Of a stretch of 64,000 bases of DNA, positions 39,500-53,239 are shown one piece after another. The stretch lies in the IMG/VR virus record IMGVR_UViG_3300028805_000045; one strand, 5' to 3'. Position 1 is the stretch's first letter. Each line of letters begins with the position of its first letter. The stretch comes from a virus. Taxonomy: Duplodnaviria; Heunggongvirae; Uroviricota; Caudoviricetes. A program made the position numbers and the translations under genes. The notes beneath the pieces were generated by a model. The model did no database searches. It saw only the letters and a list, made by a program, of their open reading frames with translations, and was not told the origin of the DNA.

Positions 39500-39507
39500 A
39501 TAAGTAA

Positions 39508-39581: not shown

Positions 39582-39788
39582 TCACTCTCGAACATATCAA
39601 GTAGTTCTTCTTCAGAAAGAACTTGTTCAAGCTCAGAAAGCTGAATATCTACTACGTTTTTAGTCCCATAATATTCAGTAGCTCGCTGAGCGGCTTCTCC
39701 ATAAGAAGTTGCGGCGACAATGCCAGAATCAGTACGAGGTTCATTGTCAATTTCATCCCAGTAATTAATAACGTAGTAATACATTTTC
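39572..39788 (-). CDS. Small acidic hypothetical protein (start reassigned to MKMYYYV so that it does not overlap a tRNA)
   Basis: The N-terminus of ORF-track entry 39572..39931 is a translated tRNA. Confidence 0.4.
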
Positions 39789-39868
39789 ATTCTCCTTTCA
39801 ATACAAGTCACATTTAAAATAGCTGCATTTTTTAGTGCGGTTTTTGTTAAGATTGCTGTTAATGACTT

Positions 39869-39959
39869 TGGCGGGGAGGGTGGGATTCGAACCCACGCAC
39901 CAGTTACCTGGCCTAATTGCTTAGTAGGCAACCCCCTTCAACCACTTGGGTACCTCCCC
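39869..39959 (-). tRNA. Type II (Ser-like, G73) tRNA with anticodon loop CTACTAA (formal anticodon ACT; the loop contains CTA)
   Basis: Acceptor GGGGAGG/CCTCCCC is a perfect stem. Long variable arm. CCA encoded. The acceptor closely resembles that of the CTA tRNA at 43958. Confidence 0.55.
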
Positions 39960-40471
39960 ATATAAGCCGATGTATTAATATTGCGGCAACATTAATACTT
40001 TCTGTATATGCTATATAAAGCCGCGCAATGTATAGGCTATCGGCTTAGCCCATTATAATACGGTTTCGAGGTCGTACACCGAAAACCCCAACATGTTGTT
40101 AGCGTTTTTTATTTTACTCTCACGCTGTTGCGATCGCTATATACCGCACTACGTCTTAGAGGACTTTATTTTGCCGCATTCGGGGCATGAAGTGTTCCGT
40201 TCTAAGAATCTTCTCTCCGCGAATTATGTTCTTTTTATATACCGCAGGAACATAGCTAATTAGCGGTTTCTCCCCTATCTTTCAGCGGCCGACCTACTCA
40301 ATAGGCAAGAAATATATATAAGAAGCGGTGACGTATACTTTGGCCGCAATTTGTTTCTAACAAGAGATTACGTCTCACACTGCCAGTCATCAAGTTCTTT
40401 AGCTTGCTTGACACGGCTCCAAGAGGAAGAAAACACAGTACGACTCATTTTACGCATAATCATCACTTTCC

Positions 40472-40522
40472 TTTCTCTCTTTCTTACATATATATTATAC
40501 TATAAATTTTATTTATAGTCAA
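40472..40522 (-). promoter_or_regulatory. Promoter cassette copy driving an ORF-poor segment and the downstream tRNAs
   Basis: Full cassette including the CTTTCTTACATATATATTATAC leader. Confidence 0.5.
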
Positions 40523-40839
40523 ATATTAATTCCATGAGATTTCATTGCGGATTTTAAAGAATTATTTGTAAGAGTTGTATTAACACTACTACAAGTGGTA
40601 GTAGCTGTATCTCCAGATTTGCATGTTACTTGATTCCACCAAGGATTAGGATCTCCAGTAGATTGCCATGTAATACTAGGAGTAGCAGTAATTTGTGTGC
40701 CGATGCAGTTAATACAAGAGTTCTGCCAAGGAGCCATAATTGCTCCACAAGAAGGGCATTTCCAGCCATATTGAATCGGTAATGAAACTGGTTTATCAGA
40801 ATTAGATTTAACAGTATATGTTGTTGAAGTACTATCCAT
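40519..40839 (-). CDS. Cys-rich small protein
   Basis: 106-aa ORF. Confidence 0.4.
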   Translation of the reverse strand: MDSTSTTYTVKSNSDKPVSLPIQYGWKCPSCGAIMAPWQNSCINCIGTQITATPSITWQSTGDPNPWWNQVTCKSGDTATTTCSSVNTTLTNNSLKSAMKSHGINI

Positions 40840-40841
40840 TT

Positions 40842-41357
40842 TTAATTCTCCTTTAAAAATTTATCTAAAATAGGAACATTGACATTAGAATTAATTACTG
40901 AACCCACTTTTCGTGGTTGATATAAAGCAATAGTTTGTAGAAGATTACGATCAATTCCATAAATTAAGTCATTAATTTCATCTTCAACTTCTGCACGAGG
41001 TCTACAAAAATCTTTATATTCTTCTTTTCGTTTTTCGATTTCAATTAAAGCATTATTTCGAGTTATATCTTCTATTTCAATTGTATATAAGACTTCATCG
41101 TTACGTTGTTTACATTTACAACAAATATAAGTTTCATAGATTTTTATAACTAAACGACCAAGCTGTTTTTCTTTTTCTCGTTTTTTATTAGCTTCATTAT
41201 AATAAACATTCCAAGAAAATATAAAATATGGTGAAGAATCCCACCAAAAATGCTCACATTCTTTTGGAACATAAAGTGTTGGAACTTCTTCTACTTTATT
41301 ATTGTTTTTCTTTTTTGTAAACCAGCTCATTTTATTCTCCTTTAAATGGTAGGGCAT
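40842..41357 (-). CDS. Hypothetical protein
   Basis: 171-aa ORF. Confidence 0.45.
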   Translation of the reverse strand: MPYHLKENKMSWFTKKKNNNKVEEVPTLYVPKECEHFWWDSSPYFIFSWNVYYNEANKKREKEKQLGRLVIKIYETYICCKCKQRNDEVLYTIEIEDITRNNALIEIEKRKEEYKDFCRPRAEVEDEINDLIYGIDRNLLQTIALYQPRKVGSVINSNVNVPILDKFLKEN

Positions 41358-41423
41358 GGTGGAATCGAACCATCCTGACCAGTTTATAAGACTGGCGTAA
41401 TCATACCAATATACGAATGCCCC
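41347..41423 (-). tRNA. tRNA-Ile (TAT)
   Basis: Acceptor GGGGCAT/ATGCCCT, loop CTTATAA, CCA encoded. Confidence 0.7.
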
Positions 41424-41434
41424 ATATAGAGGAA

Positions 41435-41620
41435 TTAATCCTCTTCGCCAAAATAGTCATCTATAGTTTTAGGACTAAAACTTAAAGCAATTGCGAATCG
41501 CCGAAAAAAACTCACTAATTCACTCATAGTTAAATCTTCTGAACAGTGAAAGGTTAAATCTACATCAGGATAATTTTCTGGATAAAATGAAAAACTTAAA
41601 GTTGCATTTTTTTCTTCCAT
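41435..41620 (-). CDS. Hypothetical protein
   Basis: 61-aa ORF. Confidence 0.35.
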   Translation of the reverse strand: MEEKNATLSFSFYPENYPDVDLTFHCSEDLTMSELVSFFRRFAIALSFSPKTIDDYFGEED

Positions 41621-41627
41621 TTTATTT

Positions 41628-41675
41628 CTCCTTTCTTACATATATATTATAACATAATTTTAAATTAAAGTCAAT
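41628..41675 (-). promoter_or_regulatory. Promoter cassette copy
   Basis: Motif match. Confidence 0.5.
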
Positions 41676-41709
41676 TATTTATACGTTCTTCAATTAATAT
41701 AACTTCATT

Positions 41710-41880
41710 CAGACATATGTTCTCCAAAATAATCATACACTATTTGTAAACAATTATCAAACATATCGTTTGCTTTTTCATAGGCACATTGAGTAGTATA
41801 ATCTTTCCCAAAAAAATCGTCATCAGAAATACGTAAATTTTCTAAACGGTCTAATAAATCTGTTACAAACATCATAGCAA
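41710..41880 (-). CDS. Small hypothetical protein
   Basis: Manual 56-aa ORF MMFVTDLLDRLENLRISDDD... Confidence 0.3.
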
Positions 41881-41889
41881 TAATTCTCC

Positions 41890-42210
41890 TTAATAAGAAA
41901 AATGTTTAAAGCATTCTGGTTCTTCTTTTTCAAAAAATCCACCGCGTTCTTCATTCCATTCAAAATAGGTACGACGATCTTTTGTTGCACTATCATAACA
42001 GCCGGGATATAAAGTTAAAATAAATCCGGCTTTAAACATATACTCATGAATATCACACCAATTTTCATGCATAGCGCGAACTGCGGTTTCATATTCATAG
42101 TAAAAGCCTACGTCATCTTGTGTGCCACAATCAGGCCAGCCGCATTCATTTGGTGCAGGAATTTTTGAGAATAAAAGAATACGATAAATGGGCTTTTGAT
42201 CTTTATACAT
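41890..42210 (-). CDS. Hypothetical protein
   Basis: 106-aa ORF. Confidence 0.45.
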   Translation of the reverse strand: MYKDQKPIYRILLFSKIPAPNECGWPDCGTQDDVGFYYEYETAVRAMHENWCDIHEYMFKAGFILTLYPGCYDSATKDRRTYFEWNEERGGFFEKEEPECFKHFSY

Positions 42211-42227
42211 ATTATCACCTTTCTTGA

Positions 42228-42298
42228 AGCTTCATAGAGGAATTGAACCTCTATATAGTGTTTACGAAACACTTATGTTGCCATTACATTAATGAAGC
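42228..42298 (-). tRNA. tRNA-Thr (CGT)
   Basis: Acceptor GCTTCAT/ATGAAGC, loop TTCGTAA, T-loop TTCAATT. CCA is not encoded. Confidence 0.7.
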
Positions 42299-42299
42299 G

Positions 42300-42627
42300 T
42301 TTGATGGCTGATTTTTCTGCTGTCCGCCAGCCATCGGCACATACGTCCGATAAGAACACAGGTTTTTCCGTTGCCTGCCAACCGCCGGCACATTCGTCCG
42401 GTAAGTCTGTCGGATTTTAGGTGTCAGCCCACCGGTAATAATTGTTACCTCAAAATAAGCCAGATATACCAATAACATTTGTATATCTTTAACGACCGGG
42501 CTCACGGCGACCACCTCCTTAAGATTCCCTAGTGGTTCGTCTGGGATACGAGAATTTTCCTTTCCGATTTGGTTCGCGACCCGCTTCGGCGGCAACACCT
42601 TTATACATTCCCATTCTCAAAGGTTAC
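42300..42627 (-). ncRNA. GC-enriched ORF-free segment between two tRNAs, candidate structured RNA
   Basis: Contains a tandem pair of roughly 48-nt repeats (GCCAGCCATCGGCACATACGTCCGATAAG / GCCAACCGCCGGCACATTCGTCCGGTAAG) and a CCGC-UUCG-GCGG tetraloop hairpin. The overlapping ORF 42284..42598 is judged spurious. Confidence 0.3.
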
Positions 42628-42703
42628 TGGTCGGAGTGGTGGGACTTGAACCCACGACTTCTTGATCCCAAATCAAGCACGCTACCAACTGCGCTACACC
42701 CCG
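42628..42703 (-). tRNA. tRNA-Pro (TGG)
   Basis: Acceptor CGGGGTG/CACTCCG, loop TTTGGGA, CCA encoded. Fused directly to the promoter leader. Confidence 0.8.
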
Positions 42704-42736
42704 TTCTTTACATATCTATTATACTATAATTTTAAC
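42702..42736 (-). promoter_or_regulatory. Promoter cassette copy fused directly to tRNA-Pro
   Basis: The leader ...ATATGTAAAGAA runs straight into the tRNA 5' end CGGGGTG. Confidence 0.5.
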
Positions 42737-42743
42737 TAAAAGT

Positions 42744-42814
42744 CAAATATTAAAGCGTCCAGTTGGAGTTGAACCAACTAACAAGGATTTTGCAGACCCT
42801 CTCCCGACCGACGA
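42744..42814 (-). tRNA. tRNA-Cys (GCA)
   Basis: Acceptor GCGTCCA/TGGACGC, loop CTGCAAA, T-loop TTCAACT. Confidence 0.75.
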
Positions 42815-42942
42815 GAATTGGACGCATATGCACAAGATAATAAGCAGTTGACAATCTGCATCTCTTATATTAGTGATAGCTGCCTGTTCTATCCTTTATT
42901 ATCTTATGCTCCGCTCTTTCTACACATGGCAGATGAGTTAAA

Positions 42943-43014
42943 CAGGAAGGTAGGGACTCGAACCCCAATCAACGGTTTTGGAGACCGTCATGCTACCAAT
43001 TGCACCACCGACCT
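42943..43014 (-). tRNA. tRNA-Trp (CCA), imperfect acceptor
   Basis: Perfect anticodon stem ACGGT/ACCGT with loop CTCCAAA. T-loop TTCGAGT. The acceptor has 2 mismatches. Confidence 0.55.
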
Positions 43015-43251
43015 ATGATATGATAGGTTGATCCTGGTGTTTCCTCTTTTAAATACGACAAACTTGAATAAAATTTCCAGTTTCTATTCTTAAAAATTAC
43101 CGTATCCCTATCTAACGACATTTCAGCCGCTGTTTACAGTTCTACTGCCTTTCGGAATAAACAGCAATCCCCTGGTGGCATGGGTTGGTAACGATCCAAC
43201 CTATGTGGATTTTCAGTCCACTGCTAATCCGTCTCAGCTACCGTGCCATAA

Positions 43252-43339
43252 TGGGTGGAAAGACAGGACTTGAACCTGCACTTCTCTAATGAGAAATCGG
43301 GGCCACAACCCGACGCGTATACCATTTCGCCACTTACCA
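43252..43339 (-). tRNA. Type II tRNA with anticodon loop TTGTGGC (anticodon GTG, His-type; C73)
   Basis: Acceptor TGGTAAG/CTTTCCA (1 mismatch). Long variable arm TTCTCATTAGAGAA. CCA encoded. Confidence 0.45.
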
Positions 43340-43350
43340 CATATATCTAA

Positions 43351-43422
43351 TGCGAGTGGTGGGAATTGAACCCACTGTACCTTGATTAAAAGTCAAGTGC
43401 CTTACCGGTTGGCTACACTCGC
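43351..43422 (-). tRNA. tRNA-Lys (TTT)
   Basis: Acceptor GCGAGTG/CACTCGC, loop CTTTTAA. Confidence 0.8.
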
Positions 43423-43425
43423 ATA

Positions 43426-43501
43426 TGGAGCTGAGGACGGGACTTGAACCCGTGGTCTTGCGCTTACCAAGCGCACGCTTTACCAACTAAGCTACGACAG
43501 C
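43426..43501 (-). tRNA. tRNA-Thr (GGT)
   Basis: Loop TTGGTAA and T-loop TTCAAGT. The acceptor has 2 internal mismatches. CCA encoded. Confidence 0.65.
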
Positions 43502-43503
43502 AT

Positions 43504-43620
43504 TGGAGCAAGTACACGGATTTGAATCGCGGATACTGTGATTAATGGTGGAAGACCCAAGATTCAAACTTGGCCCTACTTGCGCGAGTATGTGCCTTCA
43601 CTACACCAATCTCCCAAGTC
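43504..43620 (-). tRNA. Degenerate tRNA-like sequence
   Basis: Acceptor GCAAGTA/TACTTGC and a T-loop TTCAAAT are present but no anticodon arm can be folded. Confidence 0.2.
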
Positions 43621-43785
43621 ACATGCTTTTCCAACTAAACTAATGGCGCATATAAATCACATCCATTCTCCCGATTCTCCAAATGGAACCTATCCACCGT
43701 AATTAACTTTTCATTAATTACCCTTATAGCGTCAACGAAGGATATAGACTATTTTATTGATCGTACTTTTATCTCATGTGATTAA

Positions 43786-43859
43786 TGGAGCAAGTAGCGG
43801 GAATTGAACCCGCGACGTCTGCATGGCAAGCAGAAGTTTTACCGCTAAACTATACCTGC
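43786..43859 (-). tRNA. tRNA-Gly (GCC)
   Basis: Acceptor GCAGGTA/TACTTGC, loop TTGCCAT, CCA encoded. Confidence 0.8.
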
Positions 43860-43865
43860 ATAAAC

Positions 43866-43955
43866 TAGACCATTTAATTTATAGGAATCGAACCTATTCA
43901 AAAATTTTTTACAGAAATTTTTTTTAACCAAAATTAATTGCCGAAATGGTCTATA
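43866..43955 (-). tRNA. AT-rich tRNA-like element (loop CTGTAAA, i.e. GTA)
   Basis: Outer stem TAGACCATTT/AAATGGTCTA and T-arm ATAGG-TTCGATT-CCTAT, with an AATTT/AAATT stem bearing a CTGTAAA loop. The spacing is non-canonical. Confidence 0.2.
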
Positions 43956-43957
43956 AT

Positions 43958-44047
43958 TGGCGGGGGAGCTCGGATTTGAACCGAGAATGACGCCCTCAGA
44001 AGGCCCAGGTTTTAGAGACCTGCGTGTTGCCGTTACACCACTCCCCT
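43958..44047 (-). tRNA. Amber suppressor tRNA, anticodon CTA; type II scaffold (long variable arm), Ser-like
   Basis: Anticodon stem CAGGT/ACCTG with loop CTCTAAA (CTA = revcomp of plus 44013-44015). T-arm CTCGG-TTCAAAT-CCGAG. 3' end is ...CTCCCCCGCCA. The loop flanks GGTCT.CTAAAACC resemble this phage's tRNA-Ser(TGA) (GGTCTTGAAAACC) and the E. coli serU/supD Ser tRNA. Confidence 0.75.
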
Positions 44048-44050
44048 TTA

Positions 44051-44184
44051 TGGTGGGCGAGGACAGGATTTGAACCTGCGAAGCTTTCGCCTTGGATTTA
44101 CAGTCCATTAAGTAGCTGTTAGAACCTCAATTACTAGATTCATTTTATCGGTTCCAATGTCTTTGACCACTTGACTACTCGCCC
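44051..44184 (-). tRNA. tRNA-Tyr (GTA)-like gene interrupted by a roughly 48-nt insertion at the 5' side of the anticodon loop
   Basis: Perfect acceptor GGGCGAG/CTCGCCC, A73, CCA. Loop CTGTAAA. The insert ACCGATAAAATGAATCTAGTAATTGAGGTTCTAACAGCTACTTAA is flanked by the direct repeat TGGA. Confidence 0.45.
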
Positions 44185-44263
44185 ATATGAGAGTTTTGAA
44201 CACCAAACTCACAACGGTTGCCTTAGGGTAGTAACTTTCCTGCGACTCAGCTCGCAACACTAT

Positions 44264-44349
44264 TGGTGGGCCGCGGTGGAATCGAACCACCTGAGTCATT
44301 GACAGCTGATTTACAGTCAGCGCCGCTTCCATATACGGTATACCGACCC
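44264..44349 (-). tRNA. tRNA-Tyr (GTA), type II
   Basis: Anticodon stem GCTGA/TCAGC, loop CTGTAAA, long variable arm, T-loop TTCGATT, A73, CCA encoded. Confidence 0.75.
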
Positions 44350-44422
44350 ATAAATAACACGACGACTTCTAACTAAATAAATCCCTAATTTATTGTTAAA
44401 ATTATTGCTGTAATCGTCGTAA

Positions 44423-44498
44423 TGGTCTCCCGTGAAGGATTTGAACCCTCATTAATAGATCCGTAGTCTATTGTCCTATTCCGTTAGACGAACGGGAG
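44423..44498 (-). tRNA. tRNA-Arg (ACG)
   Basis: Acceptor CTCCCGT/ACGGGAG, stem ATAGA/TCTAT, loop CTACGGA. Confidence 0.8.
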
Positions 44499-44744
44499 AT
44501 ACAAGAAGCGTTTTTACGCTTCTAGAAACTTTTTGCACGCTAGTGCATAAGATGTTATTGGGCCACGCGCGTCCCACCGCCCTGTTTTAAATTGATTATT
44601 GGTTATCATTCGATCTTTCGATCTCCCAAGTTCTCAATTTAATCATGCGCCAAAGCCTTGTCCGCCCTAGTTAATGTTGAGAATCGCCGTATATAGTACT
44701 GTTCGTGGTGGCGCCTTACATCCATATAACTATATATCCCACGC

Positions 44745-44787
44745 TCTCAACATATTTATTATACTATAATTTTAGAATAAAGTCAAA
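44745..44787 (-). promoter_or_regulatory. Promoter cassette copy
   Basis: Motif match. Confidence 0.5.
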
Positions 44788-44789
44788 TA

Positions 44790-45104
44790 TCAGTATTCTT
44801 TGTATCCATAATGAGTAAGTAATTGCCGCATATTCTGCACACCAACAGGATTCATGCTATGAATATGAAAACCAACAAGTGGAATTTGATGTTCTACAAT
44901 ATATTTACAAATATCATATCCAGAACCATCAAGTCCAATATCATGGTCAAGGTCAATGAAAATTTCATCATTTTTCGTACAACAATCTAATATATCAATT
45001 GTACTATGATAATCTCGGCATACCTGAACTTGGTATTGATTACTTTTTAATATGTTAGCCCAAGTACATTCACGAATATCATCTATATAAATGTAAATTT
45101 TCAT
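44790..45104 (-). CDS. Hypothetical protein
   Basis: 104-aa ORF. Confidence 0.45.
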   Translation of the reverse strand: MKIYIYIDDIRECTWANILKSNQYQVQVCRDYHSTIDILDCCTKNDEIFIDLDHDIGLDGSGYDICKYIVEHQIPLVGFHIHSMNPVGVQNMRQLLTHYGYKEY

Positions 45105-45109
45105 ATTAT

Positions 45110-46270
45110 ATTCTCCTTTAATTTATAAAATGCCAAGCGTTTCAGGCTCTTTTTAACGGTTTCTGTGTTTCCGTATTCACGCATAGTCCATTAGTACCAT
45201 GGGCTTTTGGACTCACCCTATGTAGCTGACAGTATTTCAACTTCCCCACTCATAAGGGATGGTCGATATTTTTATACCGCATCATCCACTCTGCGGTTTA
45301 AATTTTTGCGGGTGTAGATTTTCACTACACATGATAAATAAGTGAATTGGCCGAGTTCTTCTTATTTATCATAGTTACTTTTTGAAGCATTTGCTCTTAT
45401 CTTCTGGAGAAGCACCCTAACACTATGTGTCTACTGATACAATGCACTTTGCATTAACATTGCCACTGTATCCGCTACAGATTATTGAACAATCAAATGA
45501 TTGTTTTTTAATTCTGCTTGCGTTTATTCCACCACCGCAAATATTATTTATATAGCACAAAACCTAAGACACCAAAGATTAGAAAAACGCATCCGCATCA
45601 TCCACTCTGCGGTTTGACGAGAAATTCTTCCCATCTGCTAAAATGCCCCTTACTCTTATTTCTTTAGTATAAAAGACACTTTGTTTAACAATTACTGCGA
45701 CCTTCGCCGTACCTCATAATTCTTCTTGAATATTATGCTACTATTGAAAACCGGGCTGTGGCATAAGTAGCGACCTTATACCATCCGATTCCCGCGCCTA
45801 GCGCCGAGAATAGAGAGGATTGTTTACCTCTAAGTTTCACCCAAACCATTCAGCAGAAATTCATATCTGTATTTGTATTTCTATTTACATACAAATTTCT
45901 GTCTTGGGCTACTCCAACCGCAAACCTTACTTATATGCCATTTCTGGCTTTCATCGACATAGCGACTTGTGGTTTTTCCAGAGTTTGTATTGGCTACCAC
46001 CCCAATACCTTATCTGGATTTGGCCTGGCTCTTAACCTGGCTTCCTATTGTGTCGCCGTAAGGAATCGTGCATTTTCAAGCGAATTACTTGGCGCATACT
46101 CTTAACATTTGGAGTTTCTCCGCTATCGCTAACTATTACTAGTTTTGCGGCCGCACTTGCCTAGTATCCCGGGCAGTAGTGTATGGCTGTTATTCAAGTA
46201 TCCCAAGCTGCGTGGTTAGCGCATCTTCACTTGGTTCATAATTGCTAAACAAAATGTCTTTTACATTTCG
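45110..46270 (-). ncRNA. About 1.15 kb of GC-enriched, ORF-free sequence downstream of a promoter cassette: candidate long structured RNA(s) or an acquired element
   Basis: No ORF of at least 60 aa on the minus strand. A duplicated 23-mer CCGCATCATCCACTCTGCGGTTT occurs twice. Two hairpins covary: GTGTAG-ATTTTCA-CTACAC versus GTGTGG-ATTTTCA-CCACAC. Confidence 0.3.
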
Positions 46271-46274
46271 TTTT

Positions 46275-46319
46275 CCTTTCTTACATATTTATTATATCAT
46301 AGATTTTGAAGAAAGTCAA
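46275..46319 (-). promoter_or_regulatory. Promoter cassette copy driving the 1.15-kb ORF-free region
   Basis: Motif match. Confidence 0.5.
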
Positions 46320-46507
46320 ATATTTAGGTGTGGATTTTCACCACACATACGAGCTTTATTCTCCATGATTCCAAGTTTTATGTCCTCTCCGACTGGAACC
46401 GCTTTTTCGGCGCGTAGTCTCAACCCTCGCATGCTCGCCAACCGTCAACTGCTGCATCCTCATGGATTTGTATTTACGTCTACATATTCCGCCACTAAAT
46501 ATTTGAA

Positions 46508-46585
46508 TGGTGTCCAGTAAAGGATTTGAACCTTCAAAAACATGGGCCTAAACCATGCGCGTCTGCCAAATTGCGCCAACTGGAC
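46508..46585 (-). tRNA. tRNA-Leu (TAG), short variable arm, A73
   Basis: Acceptor GTCCAGT/ACTGGAC, stem CATGG/CCATG, loop TTTAGGC. Confidence 0.65.
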
Positions 46586-46664
46586 ATAATTCGCTTCTAT
46601 TCAGTTTTTCTTTTTTTTCCACAATTTGCTAAAAGAGTCGTATGAAGCGATAACAGTAGACTTT

Positions 46665-46740
46665 GGTATCCTCGGTGGGAGTCGGACCCACAGAACTTCG
46701 GGTTTGAGCCGAATACATATGCCAATTCTGTTACGAGGAC
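46665..46740 (-). tRNA. tRNA-Leu (CAA), short variable arm, A73
   Basis: Acceptor GTCCTCG/CGAGGAT, loop CTCAAAC, T-loop TCCGACT. Confidence 0.65.
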
Positions 46741-46746
46741 ATAAAA

Positions 46747-46824
46747 TGGTAGCGAGAATGGGATTCGAACCCACACTACAGAGATTTTAAGTCTCTTGAC
46801 TCTGCCAAATTGGTCTACCTCGCC
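46747..46824 (-). tRNA. tRNA-Leu (TAA), short variable arm, A73
   Basis: Stem AGAGA/TCTCT, loop CTTAAAA. The acceptor has 2 G-U pairs. Confidence 0.65.
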
Positions 46825-47000
46825 ATATTGCTACTATTAACCGTCGTAGCCACGTGCTCCCCAGGTACGCATTATTAAGAGGCGCGGGCAAGTCTATTAA
46901 AACTAGACACGCTTATCTTCCCGGAGCCGACCCGGTGCCTTTTTACTGCAATTCCAAAAATAGCTTGTTCTTTAAGAAAATTTGCTGACGTGTCTCGGCT

Positions 47001-47074
47001 TGGAGCGATATGCGGGACTCGAACCCGCGTCACCGGCTTGGAAGGCCAGGGCACTACCGCTATACCAATACCGC
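47001..47074 (-). tRNA. tRNA-Gly (TCC)
   Basis: Acceptor GCGGTAT/ATATCGC, loop CTTCCAA, T-loop TTCGAGT. Confidence 0.75.
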
Positions 47075-47105
47075 ATTTGCCTATTTAACCCAATAGGCCA
47101 AGAAA

Positions 47106-47182
47106 GTGGTCGCAACACCTGGACTTGAACCAGGGACTTTCATCTTATCAGGATGACACGCTGACCAACTGCGTCATGTTGC
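47106..47182 (-). tRNA. tRNA-Ile (GAT)
   Basis: Acceptor CGCAACA/TGTTGCG, loop CTGATAA. Confidence 0.8.
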
Positions 47183-47183
47183 G

Positions 47184-47411
47184 TTAAGATTTTTTAGCAA
47201 TAAATTTCATTTCAATTTTAGTATTAGCAGGAATAGAATATGAAAGAAAATAATTGTCGGGAAGAGAACACATAATGCTAGAACCTTCAATTGTAAAACA
47301 ATTAATACAATCTTCATGGCCTCGCTGTTTCAAAGTATCTATTAACCAATTATAAATAGACTTAACAAATTCAGTTTTCGTGGCTTGAATAGATAATTCT
47401 TTCTTTTCCAT
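47184..47411 (-). CDS. Hypothetical protein
   Basis: 75-aa ORF downstream of a promoter cassette. Confidence 0.4.
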   Translation of the reverse strand: MEKKELSIQATKTEFVKSIYNWLIDTLKQRGHEDCINCFTIEGSSIMCSLPDNYFLSYSIPANTKIEMKFIAKKS

Positions 47412-47429
47412 AAAATCATTTCCTTTCTC

Positions 47430-47469
47430 TTGATATATTTATTATATCAAAAAATCTTAAAAAAGTCAA
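47430..47469 (-). promoter_or_regulatory. Promoter cassette copy
   Basis: Motif match. Confidence 0.5.
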
Positions 47470-47475
47470 ATATAC

Positions 47476-47530
47476 AAGACCCGCTATAAACGCGCCCGGC
47501 CATCGGGCATCTTTCCCCATAATGGGGAAA
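47476..47530 (-). terminator. Tandem hairpins (terminator-like) that follow a truncated T-arm-like sequence
   Basis: Minus-strand hairpins CTTTCCCC-ATTAT-GGGGAAAG and GCCCG-ATGGC-CGGGC. The upstream GTTAG-TTCGATT-CTAAC looks like an orphan T-arm. Confidence 0.35.
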
Positions 47531-47594
47531 GGTTAGAATCGAACTAACTATCACGTGCTCTCTATGCAAAAGAAGAATTGCTGACAGGTCTTAA

Positions 47595-47668
47595 TGGCGG
47601 CCGATGAGAGAATTGAACTCCCCTGGGGTGGTTAACAGCCACCTGCCAAACCACTTGGCGAATCGGCC
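47595..47668 (-). tRNA. tRNA-Asn (GTT)
   Basis: Acceptor GGCCGAT/ATCGGCC, stem GGTGG/CCACC, loop CTGTTAA. Confidence 0.8.
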
Positions 47669-47689
47669 ATACGAAAGGGATTTCTCCCT

Positions 47690-47730
47690 TTCAACATATT
47701 TATTATAGCATAATTTTAAATAAGAGTCAA
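47690..47730 (-). promoter_or_regulatory. Promoter cassette copy upstream of tRNA-Asn
   Basis: Motif match. Confidence 0.5.
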
Positions 47731-47733
47731 ATA

Positions 47734-48288
47734 TTAGGGCCACTCGCCTAATGGCTTACCAAGATTTGCACGCTCAACATTAGTATTATAGAAAACACCT
47801 TCTGTTGCTGGGCCAGTTAGAACTTCTTCTGCAATATCTTGATATAGAGTACTAATAATACCATGACAATCGTTTAGATTATCTGCGGCAAACTGCACTA
47901 CGCAATTATTAAATACGACGTAAGTTGTACCAATCCACTGATAACCTTCTTCAGCAGGACAAACAGAGTATGCATAAGCAGGATTACCTTTGAATGCAGT
48001 ATCAAATAGTTCAACCTTACTGGTAAAGGCGCGATTAGTTGGAGTTCCATCAATCATAATTTTTAGTTTAACATTGCCAAAACCTACTTCTTCTGGCAAA
48101 ATTTGCTGTAAAGCCGCGACTTTATCGCCGTTATTACAAGCAAGAACTACTGTTGGATGTTCGCCACTAAAATCAACATTGAAAGCAATTAGAGGATCTC
48201 CGTCAAATAGAGCTTCTAATTTTCTTACTGTAATCGTCCAAGGTGGTAGAATTTTTAATCTTACATTATTCATTTCAGTATACCTCAT
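47734..48288 (-). CDS. Hypothetical protein
   Basis: 184-aa ORF. Confidence 0.45.
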   Translation of the reverse strand: MRYTEMNNVRLKILPPWTITVRKLEALFDGDPLIAFNVDFSGEHPTVVLACNNGDKVAALQQILPEEVGFGNVKLKIMIDGTPTNRAFTSKVELFDTAFKGNPAYAYSVCPAEEGYQWIGTTYVVFNNCVVQFAADNLNDCHGIISTLYQDIAEEVLTGPATEGVFYNTNVERANLGKPLGEWP

Positions 48289-48299
48289 AAATTAGAATA

Positions 48300-50440
48300 G
48301 CAGTAGGTTGCTAGCCACACATCAGAGTCAAATAAAAACTAGACAGACTTATATACATTCTATCCATTGAACTATTAGCCGCGTAAGCGACTAAGTGAGA
48401 TTCGAACTCACATCCCTTGTTATACAGACAAATTAAGAAAATATTGCTGACCTGTCTAAATGGTGCGGCAAATAGCACTCTAAGCTATACATCATTATAG
48501 GGACGTCTCCGTAAACTATAAGGTGTCTCTCACGTAAGCATTACTTTGGTCGCTTACTGGTTGCCACATATAAAGCCGAGCACACCCTCGGCGTGGGTTA
48601 TTAGGGCTGTTATCCTTATAAGGGATACATTTTTTCAACTCCATTACAGGCACCCTACTATTAGAGATTATAGTGTGTAACCGCACACTTACTTACTTCG
48701 CCTGTCTTTTTATTATAGTCTGCCGCTAAGCCGCATGCTACATATCATATTTGATTATGAAGTATTGCTTAGAAAGTTCATTCATAAGCACTTCTCCCAA
48801 ATACGCCAGTAGTAGTTTAGTAAAAATCCGTGTTTTCCGCAGACTTGCATCGTAAAGGAGGCGATGCGAATGGCGGCCCCAGCGGGTTATGATCCCGCGA
48901 TCTCGGCGGTGACAGCGCCGTATTCTAACCAGCTGAACTATGGGGTCATATAGATAGTCTTTAAAGCTAAAGGCTTACGTCATAATCTCACATTGGCATT
49001 ACATATTTATACTGCTGAAGCCACATTTGATCTCAAAGCACGATGGTACCCACATCCGGGAACGATCCGGAATTTTCACCTTGAAAGGGTGACGAACTAA
49101 CCAATTATTCGATGCGGGCATAATTCCAGTGTTGGCGCACCGGAACGACGAGATGCAGTTGACTAGTTATTATTGCGCCAACAATAATAACAACGAATTT
49201 TTAATTTCTATGTTTGTCTTTCATCAACTTTATCTCTCACGTTTTTACACAGATACGTGTCAACTGTTTGCTCTTCATTGGAATCGAACCAATCCTACTC
49301 GGTGGTATATCCGGGCGTGCCTTCCACTACACTATCAGGGCATATAGGCGTTTGATAACCCAGGTTGCGCCCAAACTCTGGGCATGTGTTGTACTTTCAC
49401 ATGATGAAAATGCGGCGACCACATAAACCGCGTTCAAGAGATTCAGGTCATGACTCCCTTCTCTTGGAAGAGCACTAGGATTCCCTTCCCATTTTCATTT
49501 TACTATACTGCGTCAGAATGCTGTTCCTACATTCATTGTTAAGGGTTAGCTTTCACCCTAACCGTTTACAGCGGTCGCATTTTAGCCTACACAATGTGAC
49601 GGGTGCGGAGGGCCCTTCCACCGCTTTTCTGATTTGTTAACAATCAGTAAGGACTTCACCCATTACTTTCCTTCCATCCCGTTTTTCGGCCGTTGTACTT
49701 CTTACGTGGTACATCACGCTTGCCTGATATTCTTCCAATTTAACGCGCAAGTCCGCTAAATTTCCTATTGGTCTCAGTGGAATAGGACGCTGCTTCGATT
49801 TTTTGTTTAGGCCAGAAATCAAGACAACTGGCACTTTTGACTATCGAGGTGGCCCATATATTAGAAACCTGCACTAATATGGCGATTCTTCTAATATACG
49901 TATCTCAATCTGGTCTTCGTCCATCCCCACTTCCCGTTTCCGAAGTGTAGCGCACCATCAACTACGAGTGTGACGGAAACTCACATTTCTTCTTTTACGT
50001 CCTTACTGTTTGGACTTGGCTGTTCTTCAAACTCCATTTAACCCATTCTTCCTAGCGTGTGGTCTAAAGCTTCTTAACCTTAGTTTTTCAAAACTTACAC
50101 GCTAATTACGGCATTTGGGCACCTAATAGGCGCAATGATTTGCGCATTGCTTTAAGCTCCCTTAGCACCGATGCTCTGCCTGACTACCAGAGCTACAGCA
50201 GTCTGGCCCTGCTTGCCGACATCGTTATTTTATATACCGCGAACGATGTGCGGTTGCGCTCTCCAGTGGCCGCCTTCGAGCGGGGCTAGATTCTAAGTGC
50301 ATCAGAGTTTTTTGACACCGTGGCCTTCCTCCGCCACCGCCGGGAGTCGAACCCGGGCAGCGTCGTTACCTTTTCGCCCTAACATCACTACGTCGATGTT
50401 TCTCACCTTGAACGAATACCTTCTAACGGTCTGGTATCAA
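48300..50440 (-). ncRNA. About 2.1 kb GC-enriched, essentially ORF-free island holding one tRNA-Asp, orphan tRNA-like arms and repeated hairpins
   Basis: Only scattered short ORFs. The 14-mer GGTCATGACTCCC(T/G) recurs at 49441 and 50791. An orphan T-arm lies at about 48409-48425 and a GCCC..-type 5' half at about 49262-49345. Confidence 0.3.
48871..48947 (-). tRNA. tRNA-Asp (GTC)
   Basis: Stem CGGCG/CGCCG, loop CTGTCAC, T-arm GCGGG-ATCATAA-CCCGC. The acceptor has 1 mismatch. CCA encoded. Confidence 0.6.
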
Positions 50441-50444
50441 CCGT

Positions 50445-50520
50445 TGGTCGCGGGCCTGGGAGTCGAACCCAGTCCTTGAGGCTTATGAGGCCCATGACTT
50501 AACCGCTTGTCCTGTCCGCG
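50445..50520 (-). tRNA. tRNA-Met (CAT), or Ile2
   Basis: Loop CTCATAA, T-arm CTGGG-TTCGACT-CCCAG. The acceptor has 1 mismatch. Fused to the promoter leader. Confidence 0.65.
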
Positions 50521-50524
50521 ATAC

Positions 50525-50573
50525 TCTCTCTTTCTTACATAATTATTATATCATAATTTTTGTTTTAAGTCAA
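50525..50573 (-). promoter_or_regulatory. Promoter cassette copy fused to tRNA-Met
   Basis: Minus-strand TTGACTTAAAACAAAAATTATGATATAATAATTATGTAAGAAAG. Confidence 0.55.
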
Positions 50574-50584
50574 ATAACTAGACT

Positions 50585-50625
50585 CGAAATTTCATGCTCT
50601 ACCTCTTGAGCTACTCACGCTATTG
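50585..50625 (-). pseudogene. 5' tRNA fragment (acceptor plus D-arm) abutting a promoter cassette
   Basis: GCGTGAG-TA-GCTC-AAGAGGTA-GAGC... is followed directly by the TTGACT -35 element. Confidence 0.35.
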
Positions 50626-50684
50626 CATAAGATGGGAGTTGAACCCACGACACTGAAAGTGTTGTTTGCTGTAAGAGTCTATAA

Positions 50685-50757
50685 TGCGCACTGCTGGACT
50701 CGAACCAACGACGTCTTGCTTGTAAGGCAAGCCTTCTCCCAACTGAAGTAAGCGCGC
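50685..50757 (-). tRNA. tRNA-Val (TAC)
   Basis: Acceptor GCGCGCT/AGTGCGC, stem CTTGC/GCAAG, loop CTTACAA. Confidence 0.7.
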
Positions 50758-50900
50758 ACGCGTGCAACATCCATATTACGGTCATGTTTCAACCTTTAAC
50801 GAGTTGATGCTGCCAGTATCTCGGGAAAGAGATCGGGTCATGACTCCCGTTTTTCAGATTTCTCCTACTTTGTCGTCTCCCAGTCATCCTCGCGACATTC

Positions 50901-50975
50901 TGGTACTCCACCAGGGAATCGAACCCTGAATCCACTGATTAAGAGTCAGTTGCATTACCATTGTGCTAGTGGAAT
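50901..50975 (-). tRNA. tRNA-Lys (CTT)
   Basis: Stem ACTGA/TCAGT, loop CTCTTAA, T-arm CAGGG-TTCGATT-CCCTG, CCA encoded. Confidence 0.75.
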
Positions 50976-51232
50976 ATAAATCTCACAATTTACCATTCCA
51001 TATGCCCTTATGTTCTGGTCGTAGGGAATTGGTGAGTTTCTACCCTACTGTTTCCTCCTCAACGGGCGAGGTGTCCGGCGTACTCTCTGGTGGCCGCGTT
51101 TCACCTTTTGGGAGTTGCCGCTCCCGCACTACTTGCGGCAACAAGTAGATTGGCATATAAAGACTTCTTGCGTTTAGGGACTCCAAGGCTTGCGCATCGC
51201 CGGTTTACAGTCCGTTCAGTCATTCGGACAAA

Positions 51233-51308
51233 TGGTGGAGCTAATGAGATTCGAACTCACTACTTCTTCCTTGCAAGGGAAGCACTCTACCAACTGAGTT
51301 ATAGCCCC
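51233..51308 (-). tRNA. tRNA-Ala (TGC) with a G3-U70 pair
   Basis: Acceptor GGGGCTA/TAGCTCC, loop CTTGCAA, CCA encoded. Confidence 0.8.
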
Positions 51309-51526
51309 ATTTTATAAATTATCATTCTTTTATTGTCAATTTGACCTGGATTATATTTACGAAGAAAGTTTCCAAACTCATAATCATAGAATAAATAATT
51401 ACAAGTAGGACAACGAAAAGAATAATAATCTCCATCACGGTCGAGGCGATTTGAAGTCTTAACTTCAGTTTTAGACTTTACAATTACATGTAGACATTGC
51501 GGGCACCGAAACGGATACATTTTCAT
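51299..51526 (-). CDS. Small Zn-ribbon protein
   Basis: 75 aa with CPQC...CPTC. Confidence 0.45.
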   Translation of the reverse strand: MKMYPFRCPQCLHVIVKSKTEVKTSNRLDRDGDYYSFRCPTCNYLFYDYEFGNFLRKYNPGQIDNKRMIIYKMGL

Positions 51527-51534
51527 TTCTTTCC

Positions 51535-51582
51535 CTTCTTTCTTACATATTTATTATATCATAATTTTTAAGAGAAGTCAAA
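51535..51582 (-). promoter_or_regulatory. Promoter cassette copy
   Basis: Motif match. Confidence 0.5.
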
Positions 51583-51587
51583 TTCTT

Positions 51588-51761
51588 ATTATTTTAATGT
51601 TTACAATTTCAACCCTGGTCAAGTCAAAACCAATATTACGAATATAATTAAAAACTTCTTTTTTTGAAGGTTTTTTAGAATAGAGAACTACAAAATCTCG
51701 GGTCATTTCTCCATATTTCAATGATACTATACACCGCCAGTTCTCTTTCTGCATTTTTCTT
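51588..51761 (-). CDS. Small hypothetical protein
   Basis: Manual 57-aa ORF MQKENWRCIVSLKYGEM... Confidence 0.3.
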
Positions 51762-51808
51762 CCCCTTTCTTACATAAAAATTATAACATAATTTTATTTT
51801 TAAGTCAA
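51760..51808 (-). promoter_or_regulatory. Promoter cassette copy
   Basis: Motif match. Confidence 0.5.
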
Positions 51809-51812
51809 ATAA

Positions 51813-52010
51813 TTATTTTTTTGAAGTTCGATAATCTTCACGAGAATGAATGGTGTTTTGATATTTACATTCGGGACAATAAATATATTGTTCATAATCC
51901 CATTGACAATGATTATTCTGAATATCACTATCTTCAAAAGTAAAAACGCATTCACAATTCTTACAAGTCATTTGGTAAGGAGCATGCCCATGTTTAATAA
52001 CTTTAATCAT
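51813..52010 (-). CDS. Small Zn-ribbon protein
   Basis: 65 aa with CKNC...CPEC. Confidence 0.45.
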   Translation of the reverse strand: MIKVIKHGHAPYQMTCKNCECVFTFEDSDIQNNHCQWDYEQYIYCPECKYQNTIHSREDYRTSKK

Positions 52011-52153
52011 CGTAACATTCTACCTCGATTCCCATCTGTTCACAAAAAGTACTTTCAACTTCATACCAGGTATCACGAGAAATATACTCTTCTTCCATTT
52101 CTTCAATAGTACGATCACAAAGGAAATCATCAAGATAATCAGGCATTTTCTCA
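52010..52153 (-). CDS. Small acidic hypothetical protein
   Basis: Manual 47-aa ORF MPDYLDDFLCDRTIEEMEEEY... that overlaps the next gene by ATGA. Confidence 0.3.
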
Positions 52154-52159
52154 TCCTCC

Positions 52160-52203
52160 CTCTTTACATAAAAATTATATCATAATTTTAGTACAAAGTC
52201 AAG
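52160..52203 (-). promoter_or_regulatory. Promoter cassette copy
   Basis: Motif match. Confidence 0.5.
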
Positions 52204-52214
52204 AAAAAATCCAT

Positions 52215-52650
52215 ACTAAATTTCAAGTAAATCGACTATATAAGATTGGGTGTCTTTAATCTCTCACTATCAATTTAGTATGGATAGTGCAATTAATATT
52301 CGCGTAATATCAATTGCGGCCGCATATCTCACAGTTGCCGCGACTGGCAATAGTGCTTATATCGAAAGCAATCCGAGCGGATTCTCGCGCCGTATTCTCC
52401 GCGCCCACTTGGTTAAGGTAGTCAGCTCCTTCCAACTTTCATTCTCGAAAAAGTTGGCCTACGTCGTAGTATTACTCCGGATTAATTTACATGGCTACGA
52501 GCTCATGGCGGTTATTAACGCAAACCAAGCCCCGGCGCTTACTTTATTCTCCGCTCCCCTCGCTAGCAGGTTCGCGGGCGGGATGAAATAAGAAAACCCT
52601 TAGTTGTAAAAAGTCCTATCGGGTTGCGCATTGTAAAGAGGCGTGATAGG
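52215..52650 (-). ncRNA. GC-enriched ORF-free segment, candidate structured RNA
   Basis: Begins with the 12-bp inverted repeat CCATACTAAATT...AATTTAGTATGG. The plus-strand ORF 52250..52591 is judged spurious. Confidence 0.25.
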
Positions 52651-52656
52651 CTCTTA

Positions 52657-52733
52657 CTGGTACTCCCTCTGGGATTCTAACCCAGGACACCGGACTTAGA
52701 AGGACCGTGCTCTATACAACTGAGCTAAGGGAG
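52657..52733 (-). tRNA. tRNA-Arg (TCT)
   Basis: Acceptor GCTCCCT/AGGGAGT, loop CTTCTAA, T-arm CTGGG-TTAGAAT-CCCAG, CCA encoded. Confidence 0.7.
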
Positions 52734-52773
52734 CATATAAAAGGGTTGATTACGGCTCAACCCAAGCCATCAA

Positions 52774-53118
52774 TTAAAGAAAATTTTTGAAGAAAGGATC
52801 AAAAATATCAAATAAAGCGGGTACGTTCTTTACCCCATCGGTTGAAAAATGGAAAGTACCGTACTTTTTACAGAAAGCTTCAAGTTTTTCTCTATAAGCT
52901 GACTGTGCTTTATTAGCCGCTTCTAGCGCTGCGGTAACTTCTGCCGCCATAGCCTTACGCTCTGCGGCTTCCTTTTCTTTCTTTTCCTTTTCTTCTGCGG
53001 CTTTACGTTCTGCACGAATACGCTGACGATTTTCTTCTTCTTTTGCTTCGAATTCTGCTTGCTGGCAAGCTTCAACAGAATCAAATAGTTTGTTTAATTT
53101 TTCGCTATAAAACTTCAT
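52774..53118 (-). CDS. Lys/Glu-rich coiled-coil protein
   Basis: 114-aa ORF downstream of a promoter cassette. Confidence 0.45.
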   Translation of the reverse strand: MKFYSEKLNKLFDSVEACQQAEFEAKEEENRQRIRAERKAAEEKEKKEKEAAERKAMAAEVTAALEAANKAQSAYREKLEAFCKKYGTFHFSTDGVKNVPALFDIFDPFFKNFL

Positions 53119-53234: not shown

Positions 53235-53239
53235 TATTT

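Follow-up and report, generated by a model that had tools for sequence, protein, structure and literature searches.

ROOL and an uncatalogued large RNA in the tRNA gene region of a rumen-type phage

The Caudoviricetes DNA analysed here (IMG/VR record IMGVR_UViG_3300028805_000045; a stretch of 64,000 nucleotides (nt), hereafter the window) carries a cluster of tRNA genes that is interrupted, between positions 39960 and 52650, by eight G+C-rich islands without long open reading frames (ORFs). These islands are probably the non-tRNA parts of a phage region devoted to the production of non-coding RNAs. One island contains a full-length ROOL RNA, and the largest contains a conserved and covarying RNA of about 1.1 kb, which we call LR. 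A first-pass annotation of this DNA had listed large structured non-coding RNAs first among its candidate explanations; its observation holds in substance and that explanation is correct, its claims as a whole being supported in part. ROOL, the skipping-rope RNA, the abiF motif and the extra tRNAs of the region belong to what was already known. What is new is an uncatalogued large RNA family with its end-cap motif, and not a new category.

Results

Islands, tRNA genes and promoters

The reported G+C enrichment was borne out by measurement, the eight segments ranging from 0.40 to 0.51 G+C compared with 0.34 for the whole window. Raised G+C is normal for tRNAs and base-paired RNAs. Long ORFs were indeed absent: the longest minus-strand frames span 36–105 codons, or at most 106 when TAG is read as sense, and shuffles of the 1.1-kb island matched in composition gave a mean longest frame of 105 codons, i.e. 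no excess. One GTG frame of 104 codons (minus strand, 42284-42598) had no match in Pfam. The promoter cassettes proved to be 21 exact copies of TTGACT-N17-TATAAT, all on the minus strand and 13 of them within 38-53.3 kb, versus 0.08 expected. The genes and all 31 tRNAs called by ARAGORN (38436-52734) lie on the minus strand of the window, and two tRNAs were found by Rfam only, tRNA-Met(CAU) at 50448-50520 and one at 38537-38610. Segment 48300-50440 had been described as holding a single tRNA, which was an undercount, as it holds two (Glu and Asp) and abuts the tRNA-Met at 50448-50520.

ROOL and other catalogued RNAs

Three islands or spacers contain RNAs with matches above the curated Rfam thresholds:

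45678-46258, minus strand: full-length ROOL RNA (RF03087)
46291-46319, minus strand: ROOL promoter TTGACT-N17-TATAAT, 33 nt upstream of the first ROOL model position
45582-45615, minus strand: hairpin CCGCA..UGCGG (23-mer), then a U-run, as read from the sequence
42836-42903, minus strand: skipping-rope RNA (RF02924; 53.8 bits versus a gathering score of 36.7)
52614-52650, minus strand: abiF RNA motif (RF03085; 44.2 bits versus a gathering score of 37), directly after tRNA-Arg(UCU)

The ROOL match reached 323.2 bits against a gathering score of 99.1 (E 1e-73) and covers model positions 1-574 of 574. The RNA is 581 nt long, close to the ~580 nt of the family, and has a tRNA-Leu 250 nt upstream in a phage context; its folding z-score of -5.86 is far better than that of shuffles. 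ROOL was also detected at the matching position in four relatives (L001, L005, L014 and L017). The duplicated 23-mer noted earlier occurs exactly twice, at 45277 and 45593. As it forms a hairpin with a U-run after ROOL, the 23-mer is most simply the ROOL terminator, and hairpin 45582-45615 is assigned this role as probable; the second copy (45277-45299) falls within the spacer of a weak promoter-like site. A pair of hairpins at 45312 and 46328 had been put forward as compensatory, and they do differ by one compensatory pair; the motif exists in only three copies among the sequences compared.

ROOL and GOLLD RNAs are known to lie near phage tRNA islands (PMC5737381, PMC12286853). The ROOL island is thus explained and ordinary, and the statement that elements of this kind are unusual at such density in a phage was overstated. 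Neither ARAGORN nor Rfam gave support for tmRNA (permuted forms included), RNase P or 6S RNA in the searched region.

Skipping-rope RNAs in bacteria are associated with specific nearby protein genes (PMC5737381), whereas the copy found here lies between tRNAs, with no long ORF or candidate partner gene adjoining it, the rest of the window not having been searched for a partner. The abiF motif, which likewise lies between tRNAs, forms a stem CCUAUC/GAUAGG that is followed by a U-run. Members of this family are expected upstream of an abiF gene; here, no ORF of at least 60 codons follows on the minus strand.

The tRNA islands of relatives also hold drum, DUF3800-I, group I introns and sub-threshold cow-rumen-3 by Rfam (L041 5097-5208; L014 6320-6413, 11589-11872, 14500-14814 and 15168-15291; L048 7642-7747, a DUF3800-I inside an LR-like RNA; L001 11049-11233; L019 11142-11241). 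The non-tRNA content of the tRNA region is freely swapped among close relatives.

LR, a conserved RNA in the largest island

Comparisons were made with 73 related loci from IMG/VR (numbered L), on contigs of up to ~190 kb, which were fetched with the protein encoded at 47734-48288. The elements of LR and its surroundings are as follows:

49342-50447, minus strand: LR RNA, conserved non-coding RNA of ~1.1 kb
50448-50520, minus strand: tRNA-Met (CAU), missed by ARAGORN (Rfam tRNA, 43.5 bits)
50545-50573, minus strand: promoter TTGACT-N17-TATAAT of the tRNA-Met/LR/tRNA-Glu/tRNA-Asp unit
49269-49341, minus strand: degenerate tRNA-like element that immediately follows LR (sub-threshold Rfam tRNA match of 19.7 bits)
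50415-50445, minus strand: LR 5' H-type pseudoknot, ACGGU/ACCGU crossing AUACC/GGUAU, right after tRNA-Met
50340-50356, minus strand: T-loop-type hairpin CCGGGUUCGACUCCCGG, inside the LR 5' domain
50284-50305, minus strand: invariant block CUGAUGCACUUAGARUCUAGCC, identical in 12 of 12 aligned relatives
50018-50051, minus strand: most widely conserved LR block, B6, GAAGAAUGGGUUAAAUGGAGUUUGAAGAACAGCC, from sequence comparison
49584-49691, minus strand: LR domain closed by an A-rich-bulge helix, GGCC-GAAAAA-CGGG ... CCCG-UCAC..GGCU
49347-49382, minus strand: LR 3' H-type pseudoknot CCCAG..GGCG..CUGGGUUAUCAAACGCC, 5 nt before the next tRNA-like element

LR starts right after the CCA of tRNA-Met (50447) and ends 5 nt before the tRNA-like element. 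tRNA-Met precedes LR in most relatives, and in 12 loci the interval from tRNA-Met to the LR 3' end was free of promoters. A genuine tRNA, usually tRNA-Glu, follows LR in relatives, and the L048 homologue of the tRNA-like element scored 32.4 bits.

The conserved blocks were found in the same order in ~25 distinct related rumen-phage loci, with variable inserts between them. The block at 50284-50305 served as a probe for further LR loci, and profile searches with the 5' domain detected ~30 distinct homologues, some of them quite divergent. In an alignment of 11 sequences of this domain, the 63 pairs of the predicted structure were 93% paired, compared with 35–47% when partners were slid, a fraction that is inflated because the structure was derived from the same alignment on which it was tested. 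The count of pairs with double changes is the more robust measure, and it amounted to 20 versus 3–8 in the slid controls. None of 500 shuffles reached the observed values. Helices of the 3' half covary as well, for example UUGCUC/GAGCAA to UUACUC/GAGUAA. In the domain at 49584-49691, the A-rich-bulge helix (GUGA-AAAA-CGGGA with UCCCG-UCAC) shows three covarying pairs in relatives, and its outer stem is GGCU/AGCC in one sequence type and UAGG/CCUA in another. The T-loop hairpin (helix 6 of the tested structure) has two of five pairs covarying and an invariant loop, and it is the sole part of LR noticed by Rfam, as a mascRNA-like T arm of 25 bits; apart from this match, nothing was found in Rfam at E<=10 over 48290-50700. 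A 'UUCG tetraloop' had been proposed in the islands, which turned out to be one strand of what reads as a 6-bp stem, CACUUC/GAAGUG.

When TAG counts as sense, LR and nine homologues have longest frames that equal the shuffled expectation and are not conserved; moreover, indels between the conserved blocks are not multiples of three. BLASTN of 49120-50447 and of 45000-46500 against 50,697 phage records gave no match. Motif scans, two on viral and one on metagenome sequences, returned only the same rumen phage clade, and a scan of 185,579 species genomes gave a single match (Polyangiales) that was not confirmed by the LR profile. In the literature searched, no report was found of another large RNA from the tRNA islands of rumen phages. 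On balance, we hold with fair confidence that LR is a conserved structured RNA. LR and ROOL co-occur in the same phages.

A divergent LR variant was observed in L019 (8131-8338), L026 (6875-7082), L092 and L093, in which the otherwise invariant CUGAUGCACUUAGAGUCUAGCC becomes UUUUAGCAUUUGAU-[hairpin]-AUAGCC. In L019, the variant embeds a tRNA-like element (8333-8402).

Pseudoknots at the LR ends

The topology of the 5' pseudoknot is kept among relatives with at least eight different stem-1 pairs and four different stem-2 pairs. The 3' pseudoknot follows the motif C[C/U/G]CAG..S2..CUG[G/A/C]GUUAUCAAA-S2', of which 28 distinct instances were collected. An exact stem-1 partner is present in 26 of the 28, with three pair types, and stem 2 averages 4.79 bp compared with 3.72 +/- 0.18 in permutations, with ~10 different sequences. 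The instances almost always end 4–8 nt before a tRNA. The GUUUGA of block B6 is complementary to a UCAAAC in the loop of the 3' pseudoknot, and both strings are invariant; this complementarity would allow a putative long-range pairing.

Copies of CCCAG-S2-CUGGGUUAUCAAA-S2' with good second stems were also detected in viral contigs beyond the 73 relatives, many of these contigs being under other IMG sample numbers (L120, L121, L143, L149, L155, L157, L176, L185 and others), often with no tRNA after them. In several of these extra-clade copies, the pseudoknot is then followed by a recurrent GGCAYCYUAUCCCGAGC string. The scan of viral contigs gave 69 matches, many of them probably due to chance (tens would be expected by a rough estimate), and a convincing second stem was seen in only about one third.

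Two hairpins on the minus strand, at 49435-49466 (inside LR) and 50827-50864, differ in their stems and share one loop, GGGAGUCAUGACC, with the palindrome GUCAUGAC in it. The related claim of a repeated GGTCATGACTCCC stands as to the repeat itself, and its positions have to be corrected from 49441 and 50791 to 49446 and 50836. In assemblies of OLE and of GOLLD, kissing contacts are made through loops that are palindromic (PMC12286853). By analogy, the palindromic loop at these two sites is a hint of LR self-assembly, and the only pointer to it; an assembly like those of ROOL and GOLLD is speculative.

LR as one unit or as a chain of modules

That LR is one large functional unit has, in our judgement, slightly better than even odds. 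Several observations weigh against this interpretation, and against that of the islands as an RNA production region. A single clade of rumen phage contigs supplied all LR homologues, so that the covariation rests on limited divergence, and the circularity of the 5' structure prediction has been mentioned above. The 5' and 3' domains had folding z-scores of -0.15 and -1.07, and the L029 homologue (720 nt) scored -0.98 over its full length, compared with -5.86 for ROOL in the same window; LR thus has no excess folding energy and may be a chain of modules and not one ornate fold. Block content also varies: L086 has the 5' domain and one module only, L048 and L043 are without blocks B2-B3, L005 is without B4-B6, and forms with a different 5' part occur among the relatives, so that LR may not be one obligate unit. 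Furthermore, most small islands are neither conserved nor distinctive in folding energy, and the transcription and processing steps are deduced solely from the positions of promoters, terminators and tRNAs.

The alternative that follows from several of these points is that the 1.1-kb island consists of small structured modules in a row (pseudoknots, hairpins of the A-rich-bulge and T-loop types, and tRNA remnants) that are independent of one another, shuffled between phages and working or decaying separately. We consider this to be possible and on the unlikely side. Besides the absence of excess folding energy and the minimal form in L086, it is favoured by the mosaic sharing of blocks between relatives, by the rearranged block order in L048, L043 and L033, by the recurrence of the GAAAAA-CGGG hairpin outside LR (50827-50864), and by the presence of the 3' pseudoknot at the ends of other RNAs and in unrelated viral contigs. 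In addition, elements that would split the transcript are embedded in the LR variable regions of some relatives: L011/L017 and L019 have a tRNA or tRNA-like element there, and L048 has a DUF3800-I motif. However, B2-B3-B4 and B6 occur together and in the same order in >20 distinct loci despite the variable inserts, there is no promoter or terminator between the blocks, and the flanking tRNAs stand only at the outer ends of the whole unit. GOLLD, too, accommodates a 5' region that varies and a linker with tRNAs in it (PMC12286853).

A proposed RNA production region

Under the preferred interpretation, in which the islands are the non-tRNA parts of an RNA production region, near-identical strong sigma-70-type promoters would drive short units made up of tRNAs and other RNAs in alternation, and these units would be transcribed as tRNA-punctuated precursors. 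Host RNase P acting at tRNA 5' ends, and RNase Z or trimming at their 3' ends, would then release the interspersed RNAs with defined ends. One product is ROOL, a canonical member of its family with its own promoter and terminator. LR is the largest product, with its blocks in fixed order, bounded by the CCA of tRNA-Met and the tRNA-like element, and the pseudoknot at each of its ends would plausibly protect the released RNA from exonucleases. Further products would be the skipping-rope RNA, the abiF motif and two permuted tRNA mimics that are described below.

Smaller islands and tRNA mimics

The remaining islands consist of the following elements:

52204-52613, minus strand: trailer ending in a terminator, assigned by position
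52204-52317, minus strand: terminator of the 52.6-kb unit, formed by two long hairpins, the second with UUUUUU after it; z -6.1; just before the promoter at 52202
50976-51232, minus strand: inter-tRNA spacer RNA of 257 nt, tRNA-Ala/tRNA-Lys (L007 92%; L006, L040 and L044 77-79%)
50760-50900, minus strand: inter-tRNA spacer, assigned by position
50827-50864, minus strand: A-rich-bulge hairpin GAAAAA-CGGG[AGUCAUGA]CCCG in the tRNA-Lys/tRNA-Val spacer; z not significant
48435-48870, minus strand: trailer that follows tRNA-Asp; intrinsic terminator at 48575-48592; z -3.1 for 48740-48870
45105-45581, minus strand: stretch after the ROOL terminator; it holds a hairpin (45312-45330), the weak promoter-like site and the cREC gene's 5' leader
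44499-44750, minus strand: leader RNA of ~250 nt from the promoter at 44786-44758 to tRNA-Arg(ACG)
42299-42627, minus strand: inter-tRNA spacer, assigned by position
42312-42405, minus strand: two 43-nt direct repeats, 79% identical, in the tRNA-Pro/tRNA-Thr spacer; z not significant
39960-40487, minus strand: leader RNA of ~530 nt from the promoter at 40522-40494 to tRNA-Ser
50568-50668, minus strand: YrlA-like permuted tRNA mimic 1 (RF02553; 35.3 bits versus a gathering score of 69, E 2e-5)
48334-48434, minus strand: YrlA-like permuted tRNA mimic 2 (RF02553; 22.3 bits), upstream of the promoter of gene 47734-48288

Apart from the mimics, these small islands are poorly conserved leaders, spacers and terminators. 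The leader at 39960-40487 is shared by few relatives (z -0.4 to -1.9), that at 44499-44750 is hardly conserved (z -1.9 for its last 100 nt), and the stretch at 45105-45581 has no or very few homologues. The 257-nt spacer has z-scores of ~0. The tRNA-Lys/tRNA-Val spacer is 77–87% identical in six distinct relatives, such as L011 and L019, and pieces of the trailer at 48435-48870 are common to relatives such as L001, L005 and L048. Some of the small islands carry LR-type modules, i.e. A-rich-bulge hairpins and the palindromic GUCAUGAC loop. The repeat at 42312-42405 had been described as a tandem 48-nt repeat; a repeat does exist, and it consists of two 43-nt copies at a spacing of 51 nt that were not called by Tandem Repeats Finder (TRF). 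Each copy can be read as a hairpin with an A-rich pseudoknot-like unit, and the repeat is not conserved in relatives. Among the short ORFs in or beside the islands, the only Pfam domain was found in ORF 44790-45104 (minus strand), a cREC_REC domain (PF20274, E 4e-18).

Mimic 1 comprises a T arm, a closed 7-bp acceptor-like stem and a D arm, with a basal stem of 8 bp containing one mismatch, and its 3' tail enters the -35 box of a promoter. Mimic 2 has a closed 8-bp stem (UUAGUCGC/GCGGCUAA), a poor basal stem and no clear Ro-binding helix. Five YrlA-like modules of this type, these two and three more in relatives, were detected in three phages (22–35 bits); their closed stem covaries, and in three of the five a conserved GUCUAGUU tail leads into the -35 box.

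Small islands and their tRNA-like pieces could also be harmless, non-functional debris of tRNA genes and promoter cassettes left by recombination. For the origin of the small islands, where recombination is evident, this is a fair alternative; as an account of the small islands and tRNA-like pieces together it seems doubtful. It agrees with the distribution of the small islands, which are common to 0–6 of the 73 related loci while the neighbouring protein gene is present in all, with z-scores close to zero, and with the frequency of orphan T arms and half-tRNAs. Tandem tRNA junctions are, moreover, a known source of false YrlA hits (PMC4201824). Nevertheless, debris does not account for ROOL, the skipping-rope RNA, the abiF motif and LR, which are conserved or above curated thresholds, and intact closed stems of 7–8 bp that covary over five copies would not be expected from random tRNA junctions.

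A Ro60-like protein, RNA-repair genes and the decoy hypothesis

The genes relevant to a possible function of these RNAs flank and enter the tRNA island:

27090-28487, minus strand: RNA ligase
32353-33246, minus strand: nucleotidyltransferase
33879-35423, minus strand: Ro60-like (TROVE + vWA) protein (Pfam DUF2828 and DUF7788; PHROG 850, 'RNA-binding protein')
36963-37589, minus strand: phosphoesterase
37586-38065, minus strand: polynucleotide kinase
44790-45104, minus strand: cREC, a receiver domain of cyclic-phosphate processing

By sequence, the Ro60-like protein had no match in the Protein Data Bank (PDB), with DUF2828 and DUF7788 as the only domains recognised. Its AlphaFold2 model (mean predicted local distance difference test score, pLDDT, 76.8) was compared with the PDB by Foldseek, and the top 11 matches were all Ro60/TROVE proteins (E 8e-8 to 5e-5, full length, template modelling score ~0.5), a Thermus phage Ro60 among them. 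The model therefore predicts a Ro60 fold for the protein encoded at 33879-35423.

This prediction bears on an explanation that makes anti-defence decoys of the skipping-rope RNA, the abiF motif and the tRNA mimics. In the role of Y RNAs, the mimics would bind to the Ro60-like protein of the phage, or else they would divert host nucleases that target tRNAs, and the motif RNAs would imitate the RNA partners of host abortive-infection proteins. The two modules share with YrlA the T arm, the D arm and a loop-closed acceptor-like stem in permuted order, and their 7–8 bp stem resembles that of Mycobacterium smegmatis YrlA (PMC4201824). The five modules in three phages, the Ro60-fold protein encoded in the window, the RNA-repair genes next door and the absence of a long ORF after the abiF motif or flanking the skipping-rope RNA, whose bacterial counterparts have protein neighbours, all speak for decoys. 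Against them, the YrlA matches are far under the gathering score, the GNCGAAN0-1G motif used to recognise YrlA is missing from both modules, and the modules lie 13–17 kb from the Ro60-like gene, whereas YrlA lies within ~4 kb of the Ro60 gene (PMC4201824). No YrlA-like match was found beside the Ro60-like gene in 31500-38500. Unlike YrlA, the modules have a 3' tail formed by the conserved GUCUAGUU string, which runs into a promoter. Decoys are, moreover, proposed by analogy with phage pseudo-antitoxin RNAs. On balance we consider decoys unlikely, and the Y-RNA reading of the mimics is a lead, not a finding. The earlier suggestion of decoy tRNA-like RNAs is thus weakly supported, by two permuted mimics that resemble the tRNA-like domain of YrlA and fall below the Rfam threshold.

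The phage and its genetic code

A GyrA protein search found no close deposited phage (identity <=31%), which indicates that there is no cultured relative. The phage reassigns TAG to sense: ORFs at 53.9-64 kb (53901-64000) and 23253-25385 (minus strand) contain 4–15 in-frame TAGs each, and ORFs such as those of gyrase, the Ro60-like protein and the RNA ligase contain none. A 90-nt suppressor tRNA(CUA) is encoded at 43958-44047 (minus strand), and it is most like the phage's own tRNA-Ser(UGA), with 71% identity; this likeness hints that TAG may be decoded as Ser and not as Gln.

Given this code, the islands might be recoded proteins, ORF-less group I/II introns or captured host DNA, a possibility that would fit the suppressor tRNA, the group I introns in the same region of relatives and the G+C content above the flanks, and that is very improbable and largely refuted by the shuffled-level, unconserved TAG-sense frames, by the inter-block indels that are not in threes, by the absence of intron family matches in the window at E<=1 (Rfam; groups I and II, 38000-53500), by the lack of similarity to the 50,697 phage records and by the unconfirmed single match among the 185,579 species genomes, so that of the earlier suggestions introns or intron remnants are unsupported and nothing speaks for recent host DNA, though a broad test of the latter was not possible.

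Some other features of the phage were observed. The tRNA at 38537-38610 (minus strand, 34.2 bits) is flanked by tRNA-Ser and tRNA-Thr. In several tRNAs (Ser ACU, Leu AAG and Arg ACG), the anticodon begins with A. Two genes on the minus strand are unusual phage cargo, a xanthine/uracil-family permease (13526-14701) and an SPFH/Band 7 protein (25454-26401).

Discussion

The presence of RNA-repair and quality-control genes beside the islands suggests that the RNAs may act in a contest over tRNA and RNA integrity during infection. That the island RNAs act together with these adjacent genes in a conflict over tRNA integrity is speculative. The co-location with the Ro60-like protein, RNA ligase, kinase, cREC and tRNA mimics would tie the RNAs to phage-host conflict over RNA damage and repair, and offers a concrete direction for functional work on them.

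A phage lineage whose tRNA operons contain both ROOL and another large RNA unrelated to it constitutes a natural comparison, which could show what ROOL and LR share and whether they are redundant or cooperate. As both LR ends are set by tRNA processing sites, their position predicts how LR is made, and the recurrent 3' pseudoknot could be a reusable RNA-stabilising module. In a more ambitious proposal, which we put forward tentatively, LR would be a third giant RNA class of phage tRNA islands, 0.7–1.3 kb long, cut by RNase P and RNase Z, capped by pseudoknots, co-resident with ROOL and perhaps self-assembling or acting on tRNAs or ribosomes. Its 3' cap (CCCAG..CUGGGUUAUCAAA..) would then be a general new end-protection module, also present in viral contigs from other samples.

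Comparison with known RNA families

Among the RNAs of unknown function in bacteria and phages, ROOL and GOLLD belong to the largest, and recent work showed that each of them forms nanocages made of RNA only. The element at 45678-46258 has no notable difference from the ROOL family, being in a phage, beside tRNA genes and in a rumen-type lineage (PMC5737381). LR, in contrast, has no match to the ROOL model and lacks the strong folding-energy signal of ROOL.

With its two short crossing stems and the conserved UUAUCAAA strand after stem 1, the LR 3' cap may resemble the compact H-type pseudoknots with an A-rich 3' strand of preQ1-I and SAM-II riboswitches. The cap has no Rfam match, and while these riboswitches sit in mRNA leaders, the cap is found at the 3' ends of non-coding RNAs, usually before a tRNA.

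GOLLD was tested as an identity for LR and rejected. The GOLLD model (RF02032) gave no match at E<=10 over 48290-50700 (2.4 kb), whereas three positive controls, true GOLLDs of phiCbK, PG07 and PegLeg taken from the alignment of PMC12286853, scored 165–216 bits; none of the conserved GOLLD strings of these three phages occurs in LR, which has no motif in common with the model consensus either, and six LR motifs had 0 matches in the published GOLLD and ROOL alignment text. Nevertheless, LR shares with GOLLD the setting in a phage tRNA island, a length of >800 nt and a mixture of conserved and variable parts (PMC12286853), likenesses of context and not of membership. The variable region of GOLLD can contain tRNAs, and the LR homologues of L011/L017 and L019 have a tRNA or tRNA-like element in theirs, and GOLLD env-38 lies directly downstream of a tRNA-Met, like LR (PMC12286853). 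The two RNAs differ in where conservation is strongest, which in GOLLD is the universal 3' domain and in LR the 5' and central parts.

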